DNA from: Bdellovibrionales bacterium
GTDB taxonomy: Bacteria; Bdellovibrionota; Bdellovibrionia; Bdellovibrionales; UBA1609
Assembly: GCA_965204055.1 (NCBI GenBank)
Contig: OZ241967.1
Span: 1,801,362-1,865,361 of the forward strand
DNA: 64,000 nt
Reading direction: 5' to 3'
The position numbers were made by a program, and so were the translations under genes. Positions within the stretch are counted from its first letter, which is position 1. Each line of letters begins with the position of its first letter. Positions 2,369-23,210 of this stretch are shown one piece after another. Below the pieces are notes generated by a model. That model had not been told where the DNA came from and did no database searches. It was given only the letters and a program-made list of their open reading frames with translations.

Positions 2369-3314
2369 ATTTTTTTTCCATCCTCCACACCAAAAGCAAT
2401 GCCAAACTGTTAATAAGCAAAGAAAGACAAAATAAAGAAAACCCTACAGCCGTAAGAGACGACAGATGCAGTTCACTATCTGCTTCCGCATATTGATTAG
2501 CCAGAATACTGGCCATAGTTTGAGCTGGCTCAAAAAGAGAAGCTTTAAGAGAGATGGCATTACCCACCACCATAGTGACAGCCATTGTTTCGCCCAAAGC
2601 ACGCCCTAAACCCATAATAACAGCACCCACAATGCCAGTAAACCCACCTCTTAACACAGCCACTTTCAACATCTCCCACCGGGTAGCTCCTAACCCTAAC
2701 ACCGCTTCCCTATTGGATTCAGGAATAGCGCGAAACACCTCTCGACAAACAGAAGAAATAGTGGGAACAATCATAATGGCTAAAATTACCCCGCCACACA
2801 TCATCCCCACCCCATAATAAGCCCCTTGGAAAAAAGGTAAAAAAGAAAAATATTTAGATAAAAAAGATTGAATGTAATCCCTAAGAAGAGGGGCTAAAAC
2901 AAAAAGCCCCCATAAACCATATACAACAGAAGGCACTGCTGAAAGCATCTCCACAATAAAGCTTAAAGGTCTGGCCAGCCATTTTGGAGCCAGTTCACTT
3001 AAGAAAAGGGCTACCCCTATACTAACAGGCACAGCCAACAATAAAGCTAAAAAGGAAGTAACTGCTGTGCCATATATTAAAGAAAGTGCACCAAAACTTT
3101 CTGTCCAGTTATTCCAGTCGGCATTAATAAAAAATTTCCAACCAAAATGAGAAAAAGCCGGCCAGGACATTCGAAAAATAACAACCAACATATAAAAAAA
3201 TAAAAAGATAAGAGACCAGGAAAAACCTTTTAGAATAAAATAAAACAGACGATCGGGAATATGGATGTCTTTTTTCTTTTCTTTATTAATTTTTTTTACC
3301 ATCATCTTTATCAT
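2358..3314 (-). CDS. pstC: Phosphate ABC transporter permease PstC
   Basis: VPSVVYGLWG, LGRALGETMAV, EAVLGLGATRWE. Confidence 0.95.
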   Translation of the reverse strand: MIKMMVKKINKEKKKDIHIPDRLFYFILKGFSWSLIFLFFYMLVVIFRMSWPAFSHFGWKFFINADWNNWTESFGALSLIYGTAVTSFLALLLAVPVSIGVALFLSELAPKWLARPLSFIVEMLSAVPSVVYGLWGLFVLAPLLRDYIQSFLSKYFSFLPFFQGAYYGVGMMCGGVILAIMIVPTISSVCREVFRAIPESNREAVLGLGATRWEMLKVAVLRGGFTGIVGAVIMGLGRALGETMAVTMVVGNAISLKASLFEPAQTMASILANQYAEADSELHLSSLTAVGFSLFCLSLLINSLALLLVWRMEKKYGK

Positions 3315-4347
3315 TAACTTTAATAGTCTGTATTCTGTTTTTTACTTCCTGTATAACTGGGCGCGGAAGAGGTATGTAATGTAGTTTTTTACAAAAGTTC
3401 TGCCCTGTATTTAAGTACCAATTTAAAAACTGAACCAACGCTTTTCCTTTTTCAGAAAACATTTCCTTATACACCAATAAATAAGTGTAAGAAGACATAG
3501 GATAAACATCCACTCCTTGAGCTGAAACAAGAGAAGGAAACAAATTATTTGTTTTTTTTAGCATTTCTTGAGCAGAGGAAGCAACGGTCTGAGAGGTAGC
3601 AGAAACAAAATGTCCAGATATGTTTTGCACATCTGCCATAGATAAGTGACGATTTACTGCGTAGCTCATAGCCACATATCCTATAGCACCGGGGATTTTT
3701 TGAACCAGACCCATCACCCCTTCATTTCCTTTGCCCCCCACTCCTGTTATCCAGTTAACTGCTTTTCCTTTGCCCACTTGCTTAAGCCACTCTGGAGAAA
3801 ACTGAGAGAGATATTCTGTAAAAACCGCTGTTGTGCCACTGCCATCTGATCGATAAACCGGCACAATATTTTTATCCGGTAAAGCCACCTGAGGATTTAT
3901 TTTACGAATATCCTTATGGTTCCACTTGGTGATCTTTTTTTGATAGATACCTGCTAAAACAGGAGCTGTTAGACGAAGAGTTTTGGTTTTTAAAGAAGGA
4001 AGGTTATAACTGATAACCACAGCCCCTAAAGCTGTGGGTAAGTGTAAAATTTCTTTTTTAGATTTTTTTAGACGGTTTTTTGACATAGGGACATCGGTCG
4101 CGCCAAAATCTAAAGCCCCTGCTAAAAACTGACGAATGCCCCCCCCACTTCCAATAGAGCGATAATTGATCATAACATCAGGAGCTACTTTTCTGTATTC
4201 TAAAAACCATTTAGAATACAAAATATACGGAAAAGACGCCCCCGCACCATTTATTAACAAAGGACGGCGGACACTGGACTTTCCAGTGGCCGGCAAAGCA
4301 AAAAAGCAACCCAAAAATAAAACAAAAATAACTCTAAAGTAAAGCAA
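3286..4347 (-). CDS. pstS: Phosphate-binding protein PstS
   Basis: GAGASFPY, YRSIGSGGG, RSDGSGTT, GKGNEGV. Confidence 0.95.
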   Translation of the reverse strand: MLYFRVIFVLFLGCFFALPATGKSSVRRPLLINGAGASFPYILYSKWFLEYRKVAPDVMINYRSIGSGGGIRQFLAGALDFGATDVPMSKNRLKKSKKEILHLPTALGAVVISYNLPSLKTKTLRLTAPVLAGIYQKKITKWNHKDIRKINPQVALPDKNIVPVYRSDGSGTTAVFTEYLSQFSPEWLKQVGKGKAVNWITGVGGKGNEGVMGLVQKIPGAIGYVAMSYAVNRHLSMADVQNISGHFVSATSQTVASSAQEMLKKTNNLFPSLVSAQGVDVYPMSSYTYLLVYKEMFSEKGKALVQFLNWYLNTGQNFCKKLHYIPLPRPVIQEVKNRIQTIKVNDKDDGKKN

Positions 4348-7981: not shown

Positions 7982-9895
7982 TTATTGACCTCCTTTATCC
8001 CAATCTTCGCGGTTTGTTTTTGTGGTTGTAAGCTGGCGTGTAGTAGCTTGCCTTTGTCCTGCTTTAGCAAGTCGGTTAGTGTGATCGAGGCAAGCAGGGG
8101 ATTTAGGTTCTTGTGTTTCCGCGCAAATAAAAAAGTCCTGCACAGCACAAACTCGGTCCTCATGGCCTAAGTTAATAAAGTCCATATACTTAAAGGTTTG
8201 CCCTCTGTGTTTGACCGAGGCGTTTTTACATTTATTGTTTATATTTTTGTCTATTGGTGTAAAACCAAGTAGTTTTAAACACATCTTGCTTTTTTCTTTT
8301 TCCCGATCTGAGGGGTTTGTTACTGCCATCTCTTTGTCAATATAATCAAGTGTCCCCTTGGCATCTTTTAAAAATATTTTAGAAAAACTTTTCATTTTTT
8401 GGTGACTACCATCAAAGGCTTGTCTCATATCATCTTGCTTTTGCGCTACTTCTATAAAACTGGAAATATTAAATATTTCATAGACTGTATTTATTTTTTC
8501 AGCATTAAAGTTTTTAGCTATGTTTTGGGGAGTATTATCTGGGTTATTCTGAAAGTGCTTTATTGCTCTTTGGATTTGTTGTTTATTACTATAGTCTATA
8601 AACTTCTTAAAATGTGACACCTGACTTTGAGTCTCTGGATTTGTTGCGGTTAAAAGCTTAAAGCTATTCATAAAGTCTTCTTTTAATTGAGACATCTCTT
8701 CGTCTGTAGTGTCGTCATTATCATAACCTGCTTCCAGTGCTCTATAAGCTGTCTCTGCTTTTTTGATTTTTTCTTTAAATCCCTTCGCTTTTGTTCTACT
8801 AAAAGCCCTTGATCGTTCTTCTAAAAGGTCATTATCTAAATCCGATAATTGAGATAGACTTTTTAAGGCAGACTCACTTTCCTGGTTTTCATACCACCGG
8901 GTAACAAAATCTTCTGAATCCTCTGTTTCTCTTGGTGTAAAAGAATCCAACACACCTTTTAATGAGGCAACCCCACGGTCTATACCATTATTGGAACAAT
9001 CAATACAAGATTGAGCCTCTGTATCTACCTGATCTATAAGTTTTTTATTTTTTATCAATTCACAATGCCCTTGATTAAGTGAGGATAAAGCACATCCTAA
9101 ACCCATAGCCATTAAGGGTTTATCCAAACCTTTAGTGTCGTATTTTTTTCCAATAGCAAAAAGGTTTCTGGTAAGCTTAACAGCTCCAGACAACCCTAAA
9201 CCTAAAGGGGTTGAGCTTAACATAAGGCCCGTTAACCCTGTTAAACTTAATAAAGCTTGTGTTGTGGCCCCACTATCTTTTTTAAGGCATTTTGACTGAA
9301 TAGCACTTCCTAAAGCTTGGGAATATTGATCAATGTTATCAATAATAGCACTATTGGCTTTAATTTGTTGATCTGTTTTACCTGCACCAAGTATATTTCT
9401 TTGTTTAAAAACTGTTAAATCCTGTTTAATTTCCATCTGTTTAGCTTTTAATTGCATTTTTTCAGATGGAGGTAAAAGTTTATCATTTAAGCTATTTTCT
9501 ATATCTCTTAACTCTCTTTCTTTCTGTTTTAGATATCGTAAAGCACTTTTTGCGCTTACAACCTTTTGTATGGCATTTATATCAGGGATATTGTCTAAGC
9601 TATCTTTTACCGCTTTACATCGATCGCTATCTTCTATATTACTGACCATAGTTCTAAAAGCATTGATAGACTTTCTTACCTTATCGGTTTCTGAACCGCA
9701 TCCATCGCTATAGGTGTCTGCCAATATGTTACCCGCCGGTTGACTATCAAATGTTTGACTACCATCCGTTTGACTACCATCCGTTTGAGGGGAGAACGGA
9801 CTCATAGGTGGTTGCATACCCGGCATATTTCCATCCGTTTGAGCTTGAGCTATATTCATTAAACCCATAAAAAAAACACAAACAAAAATAATCAT
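7982..9895 (-). CDS. Secreted Cys-containing hypothetical protein (637 aa) with QTDGS repeats
   Basis: Long ORF, signal peptide, 15-bp tandem repeats near the N-terminus, hydrophobic Gly-rich segment LLSLTGLTGLMLSSTPLGLGLSG. Confidence 0.85.
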   Translation of the reverse strand: MIIFVCVFFMGLMNIAQAQTDGNMPGMQPPMSPFSPQTDGSQTDGSQTFDSQPAGNILADTYSDGCGSETDKVRKSINAFRTMVSNIEDSDRCKAVKDSLDNIPDINAIQKVVSAKSALRYLKQKERELRDIENSLNDKLLPPSEKMQLKAKQMEIKQDLTVFKQRNILGAGKTDQQIKANSAIIDNIDQYSQALGSAIQSKCLKKDSGATTQALLSLTGLTGLMLSSTPLGLGLSGAVKLTRNLFAIGKKYDTKGLDKPLMAMGLGCALSSLNQGHCELIKNKKLIDQVDTEAQSCIDCSNNGIDRGVASLKGVLDSFTPRETEDSEDFVTRWYENQESESALKSLSQLSDLDNDLLEERSRAFSRTKAKGFKEKIKKAETAYRALEAGYDNDDTTDEEMSQLKEDFMNSFKLLTATNPETQSQVSHFKKFIDYSNKQQIQRAIKHFQNNPDNTPQNIAKNFNAEKINTVYEIFNISSFIEVAQKQDDMRQAFDGSHQKMKSFSKIFLKDAKGTLDYIDKEMAVTNPSDREKEKSKMCLKLLGFTPIDKNINNKCKNASVKHRGQTFKYMDFINLGHEDRVCAVQDFFICAETQEPKSPACLDHTNRLAKAGQRQATTRQLTTTKTNREDWDKGGQ

Positions 9896-18574: not shown

Positions 18575-18756
18575 ATTATTTTAATCGGATTTTTTATTGG
18601 CTTTGCTTAAAATATAATTCTTTTAGGTGGCTTTTCTCGCTAATTTTCTCAGTAAAAAATAAAGATTTGCCAAAAAAACAAGGATTTTTCAAAAGCAGAG
18701 GAATATAATCTGGATTTTAGTCCAGCCTACCTAAAACTAAGAACCGAGCGAACCAC

Positions 18757-18954
18757 GGGCTAAATTGTCGCTTAAAAAACCCGTTTTTAGCACCTCATAA
18801 TATTAAATGGCCTATTTATGGGCTAAATTGTTGCTTAAAAAAACCTGTTTTTAGCATCTCACAATATTAAATGGCCGGTTTAAAGGCTAAATTGTCGCTT
18901 AAAAAGCCAATTTTTGGACTTTCTGCTTTATTAAATTCATTGAATATGTTATAA
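18757..18954 (+). repeat. 63/64-bp tandem repeat block, left copy of the direct repeat around the NYN gene
   Basis: ggctaaattgtcgcttaaaaa at 18758, 18821 and 18885; the tail to gaatatgttataa recurs at 19800-19933. Confidence 0.9.
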
Positions 18955-19052
18955 AATAGACTATATCTAACAGTTTTTTCTGAAAAATATTTAAAAAATA
19001 TATTTTTACTATTGATTACCACAACAAATATCCGATATATGTTAGTGTATCT

Positions 19053-19113
19053 ATCTCTTGACAGTAAGCTATCCCACTAATAGAGTGATATGCCAAACTC
19101 AAGAGATTTTTTT
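19053..19113 (+). promoter_or_regulatory. Structured leader hairpin + U-tract before NYN gene 1 (candidate ncRNA/attenuator)
   Basis: Outer stem atctcttga/tcaagagat, inner gc-tat-cact/agtg-ata-gc, T run, then ATG; second copy at 20352. Confidence 0.65.
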
Positions 19114-19806
19114 ATGATTAAAACTGCAATCCTTGTTGATGGTTCTTTCTTTATAAAAAGATATAGAAAACTATATAAGAAAGATAATCGTAATCCTGAA
19201 AAAGTTGCTCATTTTTTATATACTATATGCCACAAACATTTAGTAAATAAAAAACCCATAGAACATTATGAATCAGAACATCAAGACAATTTATATCGGA
19301 TTTTTTACTATGATTGTCATCCACTACAATTCAAAATTCATCACCCTATTACAAAAAAACTTATAGATTTCTCAAAAACGGAGGAATATAATTTTCGTAA
19401 AAACTTTTTTGAACAACTAAAGAAAAAACGAAAAGTAGCTCTTAGGTTAGGACAACTCACAACTTATAAAAAATGGAAGATCTCATCTGATAGTTTAAAA
19501 GTTTTGTTAAAAAAAGAGATTACTGTTGAAAGCCTTACAGAGAAAGAGGTTAGTTTAGATGTTGTTCAGAAGGGCACAGACATTAAAATAGGAATTGATA
19601 TTGCTTCTTTAGCTTTAAAAAAACAAGTTGGTAGAATTATTTTAATTTCAGGTGATAGTGATTTTGTGCCAGCGGCTAAATTGGCCAGACGAGAAGGTAT
19701 TGATTTTATATTAGATCCTTTATGGCAACCTATCAGCCCTTCATTATATGAACATATTGATGGACTGCGTTCCGTTATTAAGAAACCAGATTATAAAAAG
19801 GGCTAA
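19114..19806 (+). CDS. NYN-domain (LabA/DUF88, PIN-like) ribonuclease 1
   Basis: AILVDGSF, QKGTDIKIGIDI, ISGDSDFVP; ATG at 19114 preferred over the track start 19090, which lies inside the hairpin. Confidence 0.9.
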   Translation: MIKTAILVDGSFFIKRYRKLYKKDNRNPEKVAHFLYTICHKHLVNKKPIEHYESEHQDNLYRIFYYDCHPLQFKIHHPITKKLIDFSKTEEYNFRKNFFEQLKKKRKVALRLGQLTTYKKWKISSDSLKVLLKKEITVESLTEKEVSLDVVQKGTDIKIGIDIASLALKKQVGRIILISGDSDFVPAAKLARREGIDFILDPLWQPISPSLYEHIDGLRSVIKKPDYKKG

Positions 19807-19933
19807 ATTGTCGCTTAAAAAACCCGTTTTTAGCACCTCATAATATTAAATAGCCTATTTATGGGCTAAATTGTCGCTTAAAAAGCCAATTTTTGGACTT
19901 TCTGCTTTATTAAATTCATTGAATATGTTATAA
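19800..19933 (+). repeat. 134-bp right copy of the direct repeat; supplies the NYN stop codon and the probable ssrA promoter
   Basis: Near-identical to unit 1 plus the tail of 18757-18954. Confidence 0.9.
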
Positions 19934-19945
19934 GTAGGGAAAATC

Positions 19946-20301
19946 GGGGGCGAGTGGCTTTGACGCAGGCCATGAAGCTTCAGGAGCATACAGAGGCACA
20001 TGGGGACCTCTTTAAAAACATGTATAAAAACTAATTGGCAACTTTTTTCCAGTTGCTCTTGCCGCTTAATTTAAACAAGTGGCCGTTGACTGCCCTTTTG
20101 ACGATGAAGGGTGGAAGGCGTTGATTGAATCGTCTCGGCTTTAGACTGCTTTATCAGGGTAAAAAGCTTAAATTTACTGGTAAAAACCCGATAGATTGTG
20201 TTGGTGCCAGTTTATCGGTACTTTTTGCATCAACTAAGTATGTAGCTTGCCTGAATGTGGATGATTTGCGGACACGAGTTCGACTCTCGTCGCCTCCACC
20301 A
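19946..20301 (+). ncRNA. ssrA: tmRNA, tag peptide (A)GNFFPVALAA
   Basis: 5' GGGGGCG pairs with 3' CGCCTCC-ACCA; T-arm gagttcgactctc; internal ggc aac ttt ttt cca gtt gct ctt gcc gct taa. Confidence 0.93.
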
Positions 20302-20308
20302 TTTGCTT

Positions 20309-20332
20309 GCACAAGCCGATTTAATCTTGTGC
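20309..20332 (+). terminator. Hairpin after tmRNA
   Basis: gcacaag-N10-cttgtgc followed by an AT-rich run. Confidence 0.5.
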
Positions 20333-20351
20333 TTATATATTGTTGATGTAT

Positions 20352-20419
20352 ATCTCTTGACAGTCAAGCTATCCCACTAATAGAGTGATATGCTGAACTC
20401 AAGAGATTTTTTCCTGATT
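20352..20419 (+). repeat. Orphan second copy of the NYN-1 leader hairpin
   Basis: Near-identical to 19053-19119; start ATG ATT AA appears as CTG ATT AA and then diverges. Confidence 0.9.
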
Positions 20420-20464
20420 AAGTGTATTGGATATGTTATAAAAAATTTAAATATTTATATTATT

Positions 20465-21313
20465 ATGTCCCGCTTTCTTTTTTTTAAACCTTTTTTCGCC
20501 CTCATTGTCTTTTTGATCATAATAGCTGGCTGTAGTATGTCGGGACAAACTAACAGCACAGGACCTTCAGAAAATACAGTGGATATTTTTATAGCACCAA
20601 CGGGAGTACAACCACTCATTTTTTTAAACGAAGGGGGAGAGAGAATATGCAGACGAGGCATCCCAGATGAAACTATTTACGGCTTGGATCCAGAGGAAAA
20701 AGTAGACTCAGAAGAAGATAACGAAGAGGAAACACAGGAAGAAGATGACTCTTCCAGGAGTGCTCCCATTCCACCAATAAAAGTAGATAAAAATTGGTTT
20801 AAAATGGGCCTGGTGATAGTAAACAAATCAACAATCTATTGGCTTGTAGTAACTGATTTACAATTCAAGATAGAGGCTACTTGGGGTGATGAAACTTTAA
20901 AAGCAACAGACAATATTGGATCTGGATACTGTGGATCCAGCCCTCTTTATATTGTGCGTCCCACCCCTAAAAATGCTAAAAACTCTTACTCAGGAGATCA
21001 GTACGAACCTCTTAAGAAAGATTATGTAAACAATCTTACCTTATTTATCAGTGGAGTGCCCATTCCTGAAGGTCCCCCAACTTACAAAGAAAGGGAGAAT
21101 GATGCCAAATCTGCCGTGCAATCCACACGCCAGGAAGGGCAGGACGCCACCCAAAATGACCAAACAGAAGAAGAGGAATTTGTGCTTACATCTCTTCCTC
21201 CTTACAGGGTGCAAATGGTTGTACATGGTTACTGGGTTGACAAAAGCCGAAATACTGTAGCTAATTTCCAAAAATTAGTTCGTTTTTCGCTATCTTCTCA
21301 ATTTCTTTATTAA
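20465..21313 (+). CDS. Hypothetical lipoprotein with acidic linkers
   Basis: MSRFLFFKP...IIAGC lipobox; start 20465 preferred over 20390, which lies in the leader copy. Confidence 0.8.
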   Translation: MSRFLFFKPFFALIVFLIIIAGCSMSGQTNSTGPSENTVDIFIAPTGVQPLIFLNEGGERICRRGIPDETIYGLDPEEKVDSEEDNEEETQEEDDSSRSAPIPPIKVDKNWFKMGLVIVNKSTIYWLVVTDLQFKIEATWGDETLKATDNIGSGYCGSSPLYIVRPTPKNAKNSYSGDQYEPLKKDYVNNLTLFISGVPIPEGPPTYKERENDAKSAVQSTRQEGQDATQNDQTEEEEFVLTSLPPYRVQMVVHGYWVDKSRNTVANFQKLVRFSLSSQFLY

Positions 21314-21378
21314 AATTTAGACCATAGGTCGGGAGTTTGGTTTTACCACTTTTGGAGTGAAGTCCCCTTAAAATTTAA

Positions 21379-21405
21379 AAAAGTGTCTCTTTAAGAGACA
21401 CTTTT
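21379..21405. terminator. Intrinsic terminator
   Basis: aaaagtgtctct-tta-agagacactttt. Confidence 0.75.
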
Positions 21406-21539
21406 AATTATTTTTTAAGCCGTGAGATGGTTTTGACGATTATAAGTAATATAAAGCTCAAGATTGATTAAGTTCTGGAAAAAGTTTTATTTCCATTGCC
21501 AAGTCCTCTTCTTTTGAGCTGAGGGCAAGACACTTACGA

Positions 21540-22118
21540 GTGCAAAAAACTTTGGAAAAAGACATCCAGAATAACTACTTTTATTTAAGGAGATTGTTCG
21601 TGAAAACACAAAAATGTGAACCCGCTAACCCTCTTGTGCAGTCCATTGTTAATTTTATATCCCAAAGCCGAGGACTGAGGTTTTTAGAAAGTGGCACAGA
21701 TGAGTTAATCATCTGTCAAAGTGTGGATGGAAAGTATTTAAAAGTAAACACTAATACTATTGCAGAGGTTTTGCCTCGTCAGGATTCAAAAAAAGATTTG
21801 TTTTTACAGGTTAATTTTTCAGACGGGAAAAAAGTTATTTTAACAGATAACCTTATTGGATTTAAACCTGCTACTTATTCAGATCTGGATATGAACCGCC
21901 TACCTAAGGTGGTAACCACGCCGGATTTAATCAGCTTTATTGAGGTTTTAGAAGACTCCTTATACGACACAGAAGTTAGTATGGATGAAATTGAAGATGT
22001 AAAACAATATTTTGAGTCTGTGCTTATGGGGGCAGAAGCTATTGGCTTTAACTTAATTTGTGAAAGGATATGGATAGCCAGGCTTTTAAACCACCAAATA
22101 TCTACTGGTCATGCTTGA
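21540..22118 (+). CDS. Hypothetical protein
   Basis: 192-aa ORF with protein-like composition; no motif recognised. Confidence 0.7.
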   Translation: MQKTLEKDIQNNYFYLRRLFVKTQKCEPANPLVQSIVNFISQSRGLRFLESGTDELIICQSVDGKYLKVNTNTIAEVLPRQDSKKDLFLQVNFSDGKKVILTDNLIGFKPATYSDLDMNRLPKVVTTPDLISFIEVLEDSLYDTEVSMDEIEDVKQYFESVLMGAEAIGFNLICERIWIARLLNHQISTGHA

Positions 22119-22191: not shown

Positions 22192-22267
22192 GGGGGTGTA
22201 GCTCAGCTGGGAGAGCATCCGATTTGCATTCGGAAGGTCGCAGGTTCGATCCCTGTCACCTCCACCA
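22192..22267 (+). tRNA. tRNA-Ala(TGC)
   Basis: Cloverleaf: acceptor GGGGGTG/CACCTCC, anticodon stem tccga/tcgga with loop tttgcat, GGTTCGATCC, encoded CCA. Confidence 0.97.
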
Positions 22268-22473: not shown

Positions 22474-22574
22474 TTGACCCTATTCAATAACTATTGTAAC
22501 CTGTTTAGGAACCGCCCCTGCTTATTCGGGCAGGGCGCAAGGCTGTGGCTTACGGCTACAGCCTTTGCTTTTTT
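22474..22574 (+). promoter_or_regulatory. sigma70-like promoter + GC-rich double-hairpin leader + U-tract before NYN gene 2
   Basis: TTGACC-17-TAACCT (22474-22502); hairpins cgcccctgc/gcagggcg and gcaaggctgtggc/gctacagcctttgc, then T6. Confidence 0.65.
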
Positions 22575-22586
22575 ATCAGGTGTCTC

Positions 22587-23210
22587 TTGAAAACGATTGT
22601 TTACATAGATGGATTTAATCTTTATTATGGATGTTTAAAAGGCTCCTCTTATAAATGGCTCAATTTATTGAAGTTATCCAAACTTTTATTACCAAAGCAC
22701 AATATTTCAAAGATCAAGTATTTTACCGCTAAAGTGTCGCCTCAGCCCTATGATCCGGATTGCCATAAAAGACAATACACCTATATACGCGCTCTGAAAT
22801 CTCTGGAATGTTGCGAGATTCATTATGGATTTTACCTGTCAAACATTAAAAAAGTGCCACTTGCGCAACCCATCGCCGGAAAAAAATTTACAGACATTAT
22901 TCATACTGAGGAAAAAGGCTCTGATGTGAATTTAGCCTCTCACTTATTATTGGATGCCTTTAGAGACAGATATGAAACAGCTGTAGTAATTTCAAATGAT
23001 TCAGATTTTGCCTCAACAGTTCAAATAGTGAGAGATGAATTGAAAAAAAATATAGGGATCATTTCCCCTTATAAAAGGCCGGCAAGAGCTTTGCAAAACA
23101 AAGCGACTTTTTATAAAAAAATCAGGACAGGCGTTCTTCAAGCTACCCAATTTCCGGCGATTATCACTCTTGCCAATGGAGAAACCATACACAAACCGTC
23201 TGATTGGTAA
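22587..23210 (+). CDS. NYN-domain ribonuclease 2
   Basis: VYIDGFNLYYG, EEKGSDVNLA, VISNDSDF; TTG start at 22587 with aggt RBS (the track start 22545 lies in the hairpin). Confidence 0.9.
   Translation: MKTIVYIDGFNLYYGCLKGSSYKWLNLLKLSKLLLPKHNISKIKYFTAKVSPQPYDPDCHKRQYTYIRALKSLECCEIHYGFYLSNIKKVPLAQPIAGKKFTDIIHTEEKGSDVNLASHLLLDAFRDRYETAVVISNDSDFASTVQIVRDELKKNIGIISPYKRPARALQNKATFYKKIRTGVLQATQFPAIITLANGETIHKPSDW

Follow-up and report, generated by a model that had tools for sequence, protein, structure and literature searches.

What is a structured, terminator-like RNA doing directly in front of the gene of a predicted nuclease? The question is raised by a stretch of 64,000 nucleotides (hereafter the window) from a Bdellovibrionales metagenome-assembled genome (2.31 Mb, 36% G+C), in which a hairpin followed by a run of uridines (U-run) separates a promoter-like site from the start codon of a gene encoding a NYN-domain protein. 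Region 18600-21600 was read directly and scanned for open reading frames (ORFs), repeats, tRNAs and Rfam families. The plus strand carries, in this order, a repeat module (module A), the promoter, the hairpin with its U-run, the NYN ORF, a second copy of module A, the transfer-messenger RNA (tmRNA) gene ssrA, a second copy of the hairpin, a promoter segment and a lipoprotein gene (Table 1). A first-pass annotation had proposed that the RNA and the nuclease form a type III-like toxin-antitoxin system. The reading favoured here, to which a probability of about 0.6 is given, is that the hairpin serves as a self-terminating gate which restrains a toxic NYN RNase, and that its loop binds a protein, most likely NYN itself.

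The leader hairpin in front of the NYN gene (copy 1) is composed of a 9-bp outer helix (P1; 5' arm ATCTCTTGA, 3' arm TCAAGAGAT), an internal loop in which CAGUAA (19062-19067) lies opposite CAAAC (19094-19098), and an inner hairpin (P2). All elements that the first-pass annotation had placed between a TTGATT site and the ATG, namely a 55-nt multi-stem hairpin and the U-run at its end, are present, and the fold has a minimum free energy (MFE) of -14.1 kcal/mol (z = -2.5). The U-run abuts the start codon with 0 nt between them; alignment with homologues places the NYN start at ATG 19114 and not at the in-frame upstream ATG 19090. It had further been noted that the only purine-rich candidate for a ribosome-binding site is located in the 3' arm of the hairpin, and AAGAGA (19101-19106), within the 3' arm of P1, is indeed the sole purine-rich stretch 5' of the ATG. 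The G-to-A variant of the loop (CAAAC) is common to 5 other members of the family described below. The two hairpin copies are the only two strong matches to the covariance model of this family in the 2.31-Mb genome, with E-values of 6e-16 for copy 1 and 1.5e-14 for copy 2; both are among the 14 seeds of the model, and their own scores are partly circular.

The structure is conserved far beyond the window. Homologues of the NYN protein with 40-79% identity were collected from 22 species genomes and 80 metagenome contigs of Verrucomicrobiota, Bacteroidota, Bacillota, Desulfobacterota, Gammaproteobacteria, Campylobacterota and others. In their upstream regions, an 8-9-bp stem of varying sequence encloses GCAGUAAGC, a variable hairpin and GCCGAAC, and its complementary arm is followed by a U-run and the start codon. 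The covariance model, which was run over 0.49 Mb of NYN loci, matches 73 of about 97 homologous loci (E <= 0.0023), in every case on the NYN strand. All nine P1 pairs vary on both sides, and 93.7% of the cells are paired; in a control in which the 3' partner was slid by 1-3 columns, only 29-58% of the cells were paired, and the covariation score fell from 0.47 to 0.06-0.18. The alignment of upstream regions that had been suggested as a check has thus come out in favour of a conserved, covarying structure in front of the homologues. Several P1 changes in close relatives replace U-A by U-G, a pair that forms only as RNA on the hairpin strand. The loop is nearly invariant on its 5' strand (U in 73 of 74, A in 73 of 73 and G in 65 of 73 sequences) and on its 3' strand (G in 63 and A in 73 of 74). 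In the six columns after P1, U is found in 47-71 of 75 members. The sequence of P2 is variable, as is its length (22-54 nt), and 78% of the distinct P2 segments fold better than shuffled sequences (z < -1.5). NYN loci missed by the model, among them that of the lambdoid E. coli phage ev099, still carry a long imperfect hairpin with a U-run 5' of the gene, although their loops have other sequences. Five other genomes contain exactly one hairpin copy each, which is located at NYN; the class-level genome sample around one homologous locus (L025) comprised 7 genomes. The hairpin is a member of a widespread class of small structured leader RNAs, which is distributed across many phyla and temperate phages.

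At gathering thresholds, the Rfam scan of the window returned only the tmRNA and one tRNA, and neither the window nor the leaders matched an Rfam riboswitch or the abiF family RF03085. The statement of the first-pass annotation that the RNA is no recognisable riboswitch is upheld in this respect; the RNA is, however, not wholly without known relatives. The best Rfam match by E-value is RF03535 (TEG147), to which the window scores 19.6 bits, a Bacillota NYN leader 42.1 bits and a Desulfuromonadales NYN leader 27.2 bits. None of these scores reaches the gathering threshold (56.1 bits), which places the RNAs outside formal membership. The window RNA is a distant, sub-threshold relative of TEG147 (Teg147, sRNA85, srn_0960), with which it shares a 9-bp outer stem, a loop of the GAGUAG/CGAAA type, an inner hairpin, a U-run and a length of about 60 nt; in contrast to the class described here, RF03535 is a narrow Staphylococcus model, to which no function is assigned. 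The features of a TEG147-class hairpin, an 8-9-bp covarying outer helix, (C)AGUA(N) opposite (Y)GA(R)(C) and an adjoining U-run, are all found. In Staphylococcus aureus, Teg147 is a discrete RNA of 60 nt that has been counted among the bona fide small RNAs without function (PMC5826253), so that the discrete small RNA expected from the first-pass annotation has been detected for the related class. Teg147 is situated on an S. aureus genomic island (PMC3053349), and RF03535 was produced as part of a student course (PMC7779021). According to a JAR3D prediction, the internal loop of TEG147 contains a sarcin-ricin motif (PMC13085918), which fits the AGUA/GAA letters of the NYN leaders. Full-text literature searches, which covered sarcin-ricin, terminator and type III contexts, yielded no description linking NYN genes with such an RNA.

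The position of the hairpin is as constant as its structure. In 76 of 77 plus-strand matches, the distance from the end of the model match to the NYN start is -1 to 61 nt (median 16.5), the sole exception being copy 2 of the window, and at many loci this gap contains a good Shine-Dalgarno sequence. Strong sigma-70 promoters, often TTGACA-17-TATAAT, are located 10-70 nt 5' of P1. The gap between the U-run and the start codon is too short for a promoter, and NYN would therefore be made by read-through of the terminator. Attenuators, too, have a terminator placed between promoter and ORF, with no second promoter 3' of it. In the window, the promoter TTGATT-18-TATATG lies in the 95 nt between module A copy 1 and the hairpin, and relatives have an equivalent promoter at equal distance (TTGACT-18-TATATT, TTGCTA-17-TATATT, TTGACT-17-TAATAT). 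Since the -10 element ends about 10 nt before P1 in the Bdellovibrionales, the transcript should start a few nucleotides 5' of the hairpin, leaving no space for an alternative antiterminator; neither the antiterminator pairing nor the upstream aptamer of an attenuator or riboswitch is present. In the window and in close relatives, the only Shine-Dalgarno-like purines are located in the 3' arm of P1, as AAGAGA here and as AGGGGA or AAGGGA in the relatives.

According to the proposed mechanism, the dedicated promoter would fire a few nucleotides 5' of P1, straight into the terminator. Most transcripts would stop at the U-run, thereby yielding an RNA of about 60-65 nt with a stable 5' hairpin, and only polymerases that pass the terminator would produce NYN mRNA. 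In this lineage, the locking of the Shine-Dalgarno-like purines in the 3' arm of P1 would act as an additional, translational lock. With this arrangement of the cassette, the level of a probably toxic RNase would be kept very low. The near-invariant loop is a putative protein-binding site, the likeliest binder of which would be NYN, resulting in feedback on termination or in neutralisation. That NYN would be gated at a low level follows from the anatomy of the cassette and from its conservation. Weak direct support for action in cis comes from metatranscriptome contigs of an Acidaminococcaceae locus from an anaerobic reactor (L024). Their starts (2887, 2950 and 2966) are close to the predicted promoter, and the contigs extend through the terminator into NYN; coverage upstream is absent in three of four runs, and an RNA of 60 nt would escape these libraries.

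The NYN protein itself matches Pfam PF01936 with 39 bits (cut-off 24.2), and the residues D9, D67, D156, D162, D181, D183, D201 and D216 are invariant in 80 homologues. Its AlphaFold2 model has a predicted local distance difference test value (pLDDT) of 92; no PDB entry was matched at E <= 0.001 in a Foldseek search with this model, and a profile search of PDB sequences with the NYN family retrieved only 2qip (E 0.25). Nothing above cut-off was obtained with NCBIfam, and PADLOC returned only weak matches to NYN and HEC-09. The first-pass annotation had found no protein antitoxin nearby, and all-against-all clustering of ORFs from about 100 loci likewise revealed no conserved protein partner. 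Recurrent neighbours are a tyrosine integrase gene just downstream (16 loci) and a cI-like helix-turn-helix gene upstream (12 loci). The NYN gene was found in 65 phage records, 48 of which are Stx2a-converting phages, and on 165 plasmids, including Campylobacter conjugative plasmids and Xanthomonas plasmids. In phage phiE202, NYN adjoins int and the hairpin scores 36.9 bits; in Escherichia phage ev099, NYN is located between cI and N, the slot of rexAB in lambda. The likeness to lambda rexA-rexB is one of position only, as the proteins are unrelated and the NYN gene of the window is not part of a recognisable prophage. The position on phages and plasmids suggests a role in exclusion, abortive infection or addiction, expressed in the lysogen. 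The sole NYN gene without a leader (L015) is 5'-truncated by an insertion. In the closest relative (L027, 3001-3689; 79% identity), the leader is intact and the NYN gene is frameshifted at A-rich KKKRK codons, which could be a homopolymer error of long-read sequencing or a real inactivation.

Several observations weigh against a gate dedicated to NYN. In searches that were not selected for NYN (41 relatives, 401 Desulfobacterota genomes and three exact-pattern scans of IMG/VR, the motifs of which were filtered for P1 pairing and a U-run, leaving 13 viral motifs with enough downstream sequence), only about half of the well-formed hairpins precede NYN, which argues against an exclusive partnership of RNA and NYN. 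Among the 41 relatives, NYN-linked hairpins occur in three genomes (G000, G006, G014) and in the frameshifted locus L027. In a further relative (G016), a hairpin with promoter has no following gene, and in G012 (L119, G012:C7, 99-1564, minus strand) the hairpin, again with a promoter, lies about 80 nt 5' of a DuOB-domain gene, which matches the PADLOC candidate PDC-M45A and is apparently split into two ORFs; a DUF488 gene is present next to it. Four of the 401 Desulfobacterota genomes contain the hairpin: in two it adjoins NYN, in one it precedes a 10-codon ORF and a DUF72 gene, and in one the context is unassigned. On the viral contigs, NYN follows 6 of the 13 hairpins; elsewhere, a RelA_SpoT-domain gene begins 260 nt after the hairpin (L180), a gene with similarity to the C-terminal domain of the RNA polymerase alpha subunit (alpha-CTD) begins 25 nt after it (L172), and a contig with two hairpins (L300) has one of them 16 nt before a gene for a 288-aa unknown protein. 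The remaining points concern the anatomy and the assumptions. The -10 element TATATG of the window has a G in place of the usual final T, P2 of copy 1 is weak (z = -0.5), the variant of the E. coli lambdoid phage ev099 has a hairpin and U7 and lacks the AGUA/GAA loop, and the public runs that contain the window are assembled contigs that resemble DNA. Furthermore, the toxicity and the RNase activity of NYN are assumed from the family name and from the conserved acidic residues.

Other orphan hairpins carry traces of a lost NYN gene. In viral contig L199, the hairpin is followed by 30 codons of the NYN N-terminus and then by a stop codon, and in L216 and L161 it is directly followed by the integrase gene that normally follows NYN. 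The Desulfobacterota leader with the 10-codon ORF (G126) is possibly another relic of a NYN deletion. Taken together, essentially every intact NYN gene has the hairpin, whereas the hairpin often outlives NYN and occasionally serves other cargo. This asymmetry fits a toxic gene that is unable to exist ungated, and it equally fits a toxin-antitoxin pair that decays toxin-first.

The second possibility leads to the rival closest to the first-pass annotation, in which excess hairpin RNA would bind NYN via the AGUA/GAA loop and inhibit it in trans, until a stop of transcription, for example by a phage, leads to decay of the RNA and frees NYN. The order of promoter, RNA, terminator and RNase is that of toxIN, a protein partner is missing, the cassette resides in the immunity and integrase slots of prophages and on conjugative plasmids, hairpins persist after the loss of NYN, and RCd22-AbiF, described below, is a precedent for a non-repeat RNA acting in this way. 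However, an RNA that persists or functions without NYN lowers the odds of a NYN-specific antitoxin, and hairpins directly in front of unrelated genes (alpha-CTD-like, 288-aa unknown) are unexpected for it; the defining type III features, a ToxN fold and a repeat array, fail, and the asymmetry between hairpin and gene is explained as well by cis gating of a toxic gene. Inhibition in trans is accordingly judged unlikely, though it keeps an appreciable share of the probability. A more specific version would see the hairpin as a mimic of the sarcin-ricin loop, that is, a decoy or antitoxin for a NYN RNase which targets a similar S-turn in ribosomal RNA or in another stable RNA; this is considered a long shot.

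If the unrelated cargo is taken at face value, the element might instead be a portable gate, a general leader and terminator for genes of mobile elements, whose loop is bound by a conserved host or phage protein that determines read-through, and for which NYN is simply the commonest cargo. The half of the unselected hairpins that stand before other genes (alpha-CTD, 288-aa unknown, DUF72, DuOB/DUF488, RelA_SpoT) or before none would be expected in this case, as would orphan hairpins that keep the promoter and the consensus loop and a viral contig (L300) with two copies before different genes. Nevertheless, L199, L216, L161 and copy 2 of the window are clear relics of NYN deletions, some of the next genes are more than 80 nt away and may have their own promoter, and the near-total coupling of NYN to the hairpin across phyla points to a special need of NYN; a general gate of this kind is held to be quite improbable. 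An explanation at the level of DNA fares far worse. The hairpin could be incidental to a sigma-70 promoter TTGACA-17-TAGAGT (19058-19086 and 20357-20386), possibly with an inverted-repeat operator, for which a promoter scan gave a 10-of-12 match in both copies and the hexamers of which are conserved in four Bdellovibrionales loci. Outside the genus, however, the first hexamer reads TTGGCA, which is part of P1 and the loop, and the second falls into the variable P2; the changes in P1 are compensatory, including those to U-G, the U-run is conserved, and better promoters are present upstream. Hardly any weight is therefore left for it. The self-terminating gate for NYN remains the preferred reading.

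Compared with type III systems (ToxIN, CptIN, TenpIN, AbiQ-antiQ), the NYN cassette has the same plan of one promoter, a non-coding RNA (ncRNA), an intrinsic terminator that sets the ratio of RNA to protein and a gene of endoribonuclease type, and it is likewise carried on plasmids and prophages. The ToxIN/AbiQ-type layout described in the first-pass annotation is thus borne out, and is conserved across phyla; membership in type III is not, as the toxin there has the ToxN/AbiQ fold, whereas only Pfam NYN (PIN-like) is found here, and as the RNA there consists of 2-5.5 tandem repeats processed by the toxin, whereas a single hairpin is present here. The 63-nt tandem units at 18755-18950 were considered as a ToxI-like array and rejected: they are located 5' of both promoters, occur also before ssrA and are unique to this genome. 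The cassette architecture resembles RCd22-AbiF of a Clostridioides difficile prophage more than it does the type III systems. The ncRNA RCd22 lowers AbiF expression in cis and neutralises AbiF in trans (bioRxiv 10.1101/2025.04.15.648962). Both cassettes have a conserved, structured, non-repeat ncRNA directly 5' of a prophage toxin gene (a predicted toxin in the case of NYN); however, the protein here is NYN and not Abi_2, and the RCd22 motif is that of the abiF family RF03085. A third point of comparison are autoregulated RNase leaders, such as the 5' untranslated region hairpins of E. coli rne and rnc, or the stem-loop that Regnase-1 cleaves in its own mRNA; there, too, a nuclease gene has a conserved hairpin in its own transcript, but those hairpins are not terminators. 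To our knowledge, no cleavage by NYN has been described.

If the gate reading is correct, a very common cargo gene gains a defined control logic, in the form of a tiny self-terminating RNA with a loop of the sarcin-ricin type. This would concern the temperate phages (Stx2a-converting and lambdoid), conjugative plasmids and genomic islands that carry NYN; the orphan S. aureus RNA Teg147 would gain a functional context, and RNA-controlled toxin and defence modules would extend beyond the ToxN fold and Abi_2 to PIN-like nucleases. The window adds a probable natural case in which the leader has outlived the nuclease and been reused as terminator of an essential RNA gene. The present analysis further adds that the hairpin is not exclusive to NYN and that its transcript has no room for an antiterminator; together with the reuse of the leader, this narrows the possible mechanisms. 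Should the decoy version hold instead, the cassette would represent a new class of RNA-protein toxin-antitoxin or abortive-infection systems, the first with a PIN-like NYN protein and a single, non-repeated RNA. Copy 2 would then be made as a 3' trailer of the highly transcribed tmRNA precursor, with the cassette lying behind a duplicate of the ssrA promoter, and the restraint of NYN would be tied to ssrA transcription.

The origin of copy 2 can be read from its junctions. It starts 50 nt 3' of the tmRNA gene and is 93% identical to copy 1 over 71 nt; its fold has an energy of -17.7 kcal/mol (z = -3.0). P1 is identical in both copies, and all differences within the hairpin are in the internal loop: a C is inserted inside AGUA, which is unique among the 75 best family members, and a C-to-U change adds a Watson-Crick pair. 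The first-pass annotation had taken these changes as keeping or extending pairing and as a sign of selection on structure. They do extend Watson-Crick pairing in the MFE fold but break the conserved AGUA, and with an identical P1 there is no covariation between the two copies that could speak for selection. The two copies resemble each other from roughly the -10 element to beyond the U-run, where ATGATTAA, the NYN start, corresponds to CCTGATTAA in copy 2. Copy 2 therefore derives from the junction of leader and NYN, with loss of the NYN body, and not the reverse; it is a relic of a lost NYN cassette. It occupies the position of the ssrA terminator with P1 and U-run intact, and is read as having lost the loop constraint while probably retaining a terminator function for ssrA.

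In all 14 other genomes of the genus, there is one tmRNA gene each, and its promoter region shares ATGTTATA. As this is a conserved -10 region before ssrA in these relatives, module A is confirmed as the ssrA promoter. A hairpin 3' of ssrA was not found in any of the 14, and in one of them (G001) the lipoprotein gene directly follows ssrA. The possibility that copy 2 is the ancestral ssrA terminator and the source of the NYN leader was rejected on these grounds, since the hairpin is absent after ssrA in the relatives and copy 2 keeps the vestige of a NYN start. The two copies of module A are 100% identical over 70 nt (18885-18954 and 19864-19933). Two identical copies flanking the cassette would be expected from a Campbell-type integration of a circle carrying module A and the cassette; such an event accounts for the two A copies, and not for copy 2, in the order A-leader-NYN-A-ssrA-leader.

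Table 1. Features of the NYN-ssrA region (window coordinates).
Feature	Position	Strand	Details
Module A, copy 1	18755..18956	+	Tandem array of three 63-nt units, with a duplicate of the ssrA promoter (extended -10 TGtTATAAA 18947-18955)
Predicted NYN cassette promoter, sigma-70-like	19012..19041	+	TTGATT 19012-19017, 18-nt spacer, TATATG 19036-19041; -10 ends about 10 nt 5' of P1
Leader hairpin, copy 1	19053..19113	+	P1 19053-19061/19099-19107; P2 19068-19093; U7 19107-19113; covariance model 69.1 bits
NYN-domain protein, 230 aa	19114..19806	+	Pfam NYN 39 bits, E 1.5e-9; acidic residues intact
Module A, copy 2	19798..19935	+	Tandem array of two 63-nt units, with the working ssrA promoter (TGtTATAAG 19926-19934)
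tmRNA gene ssrA	19946..20301	+	Rfam RF00023, 129.9 bits, E 1.7e-50
Leader hairpin, copy 2	20352..20421	+	P1 20352-20360/20399-20407; U6 20407-20412; CCTGATTAA 20413-20421; covariance model 64.1 bits
Third promoter segment, diverged	20422..20443	+	TGtTATAAA 20434-20442; repeat family D4, 78% identity
Lipoprotein gene	20465..21313	+	3' of the third promoter segment

The 63-nt tandem units of module A begin with GGGCTAAATTGTCGCTTAAAAA; three are found at 18755-18950 and two at 19798-19925. The NYN ORF extends a few bases into module A copy 2, and its stop codon falls in the first of the two units there. The promoter of module A copy 1 would transcribe into the NYN leader. The repeat families of module A and of the hairpin have no other occurrence in the 2.31-Mb genome. 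Repeat family D4 spans 20407-20443, thereby overlapping the U-run and the NYN-start vestige of copy 2. The extended -10 sequence TGtTATAA(A/G) is present three times, before the NYN leader, before ssrA and before the lipoprotein gene.

Some further observations were made on related loci and strains. A NYN cassette near ssrA was encountered a second time, in a Woeseiaceae genome (L021), where it is located (2924-3654) 1.5 kb 3' of the tmRNA gene (1049-1410, 227 bits) with a 503-aa ORF between them. The window contains a second, unrelated NYN gene (22545-23210) just 3' of tRNA-Ala (22192-22267), which matches the PADLOC candidate defence family HEC-09 (E 3.6e-46); a search with the covariance model gave no hairpin of the leader class upstream of this gene. 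In the Desulfobacterota contig with the 10-codon ORF (L176, G126:C58, 1000-3700), the hairpin has the promoter TTGACA-17-TATGTT, the 10-codon ORF occupies the usual position of the NYN start, and the DUF72 gene (E 8e-71) is followed by a 573-aa gene of PolX/PHP type. Public runs of the same host sample contain a second, related strain, whose leader differs in P2 and carries the consensus G at 19095. An apparent joint from 19071 to 20374 in the public runs was considered as a deletion and rejected, as it is a short contig from the leader of this related strain. Sponge metagenomes contain a relative about 95% identical to the window. Beside the orphan hairpin of viral contig L161, a truncated ORF on the minus strand (9252-9569; FYHIREGYVDYLHKID...YYVPLESPK) is present, which we take to be ToxN/AbiQ-like, and this suggests that the prophage slot of L161 also hosts classical type III toxins.

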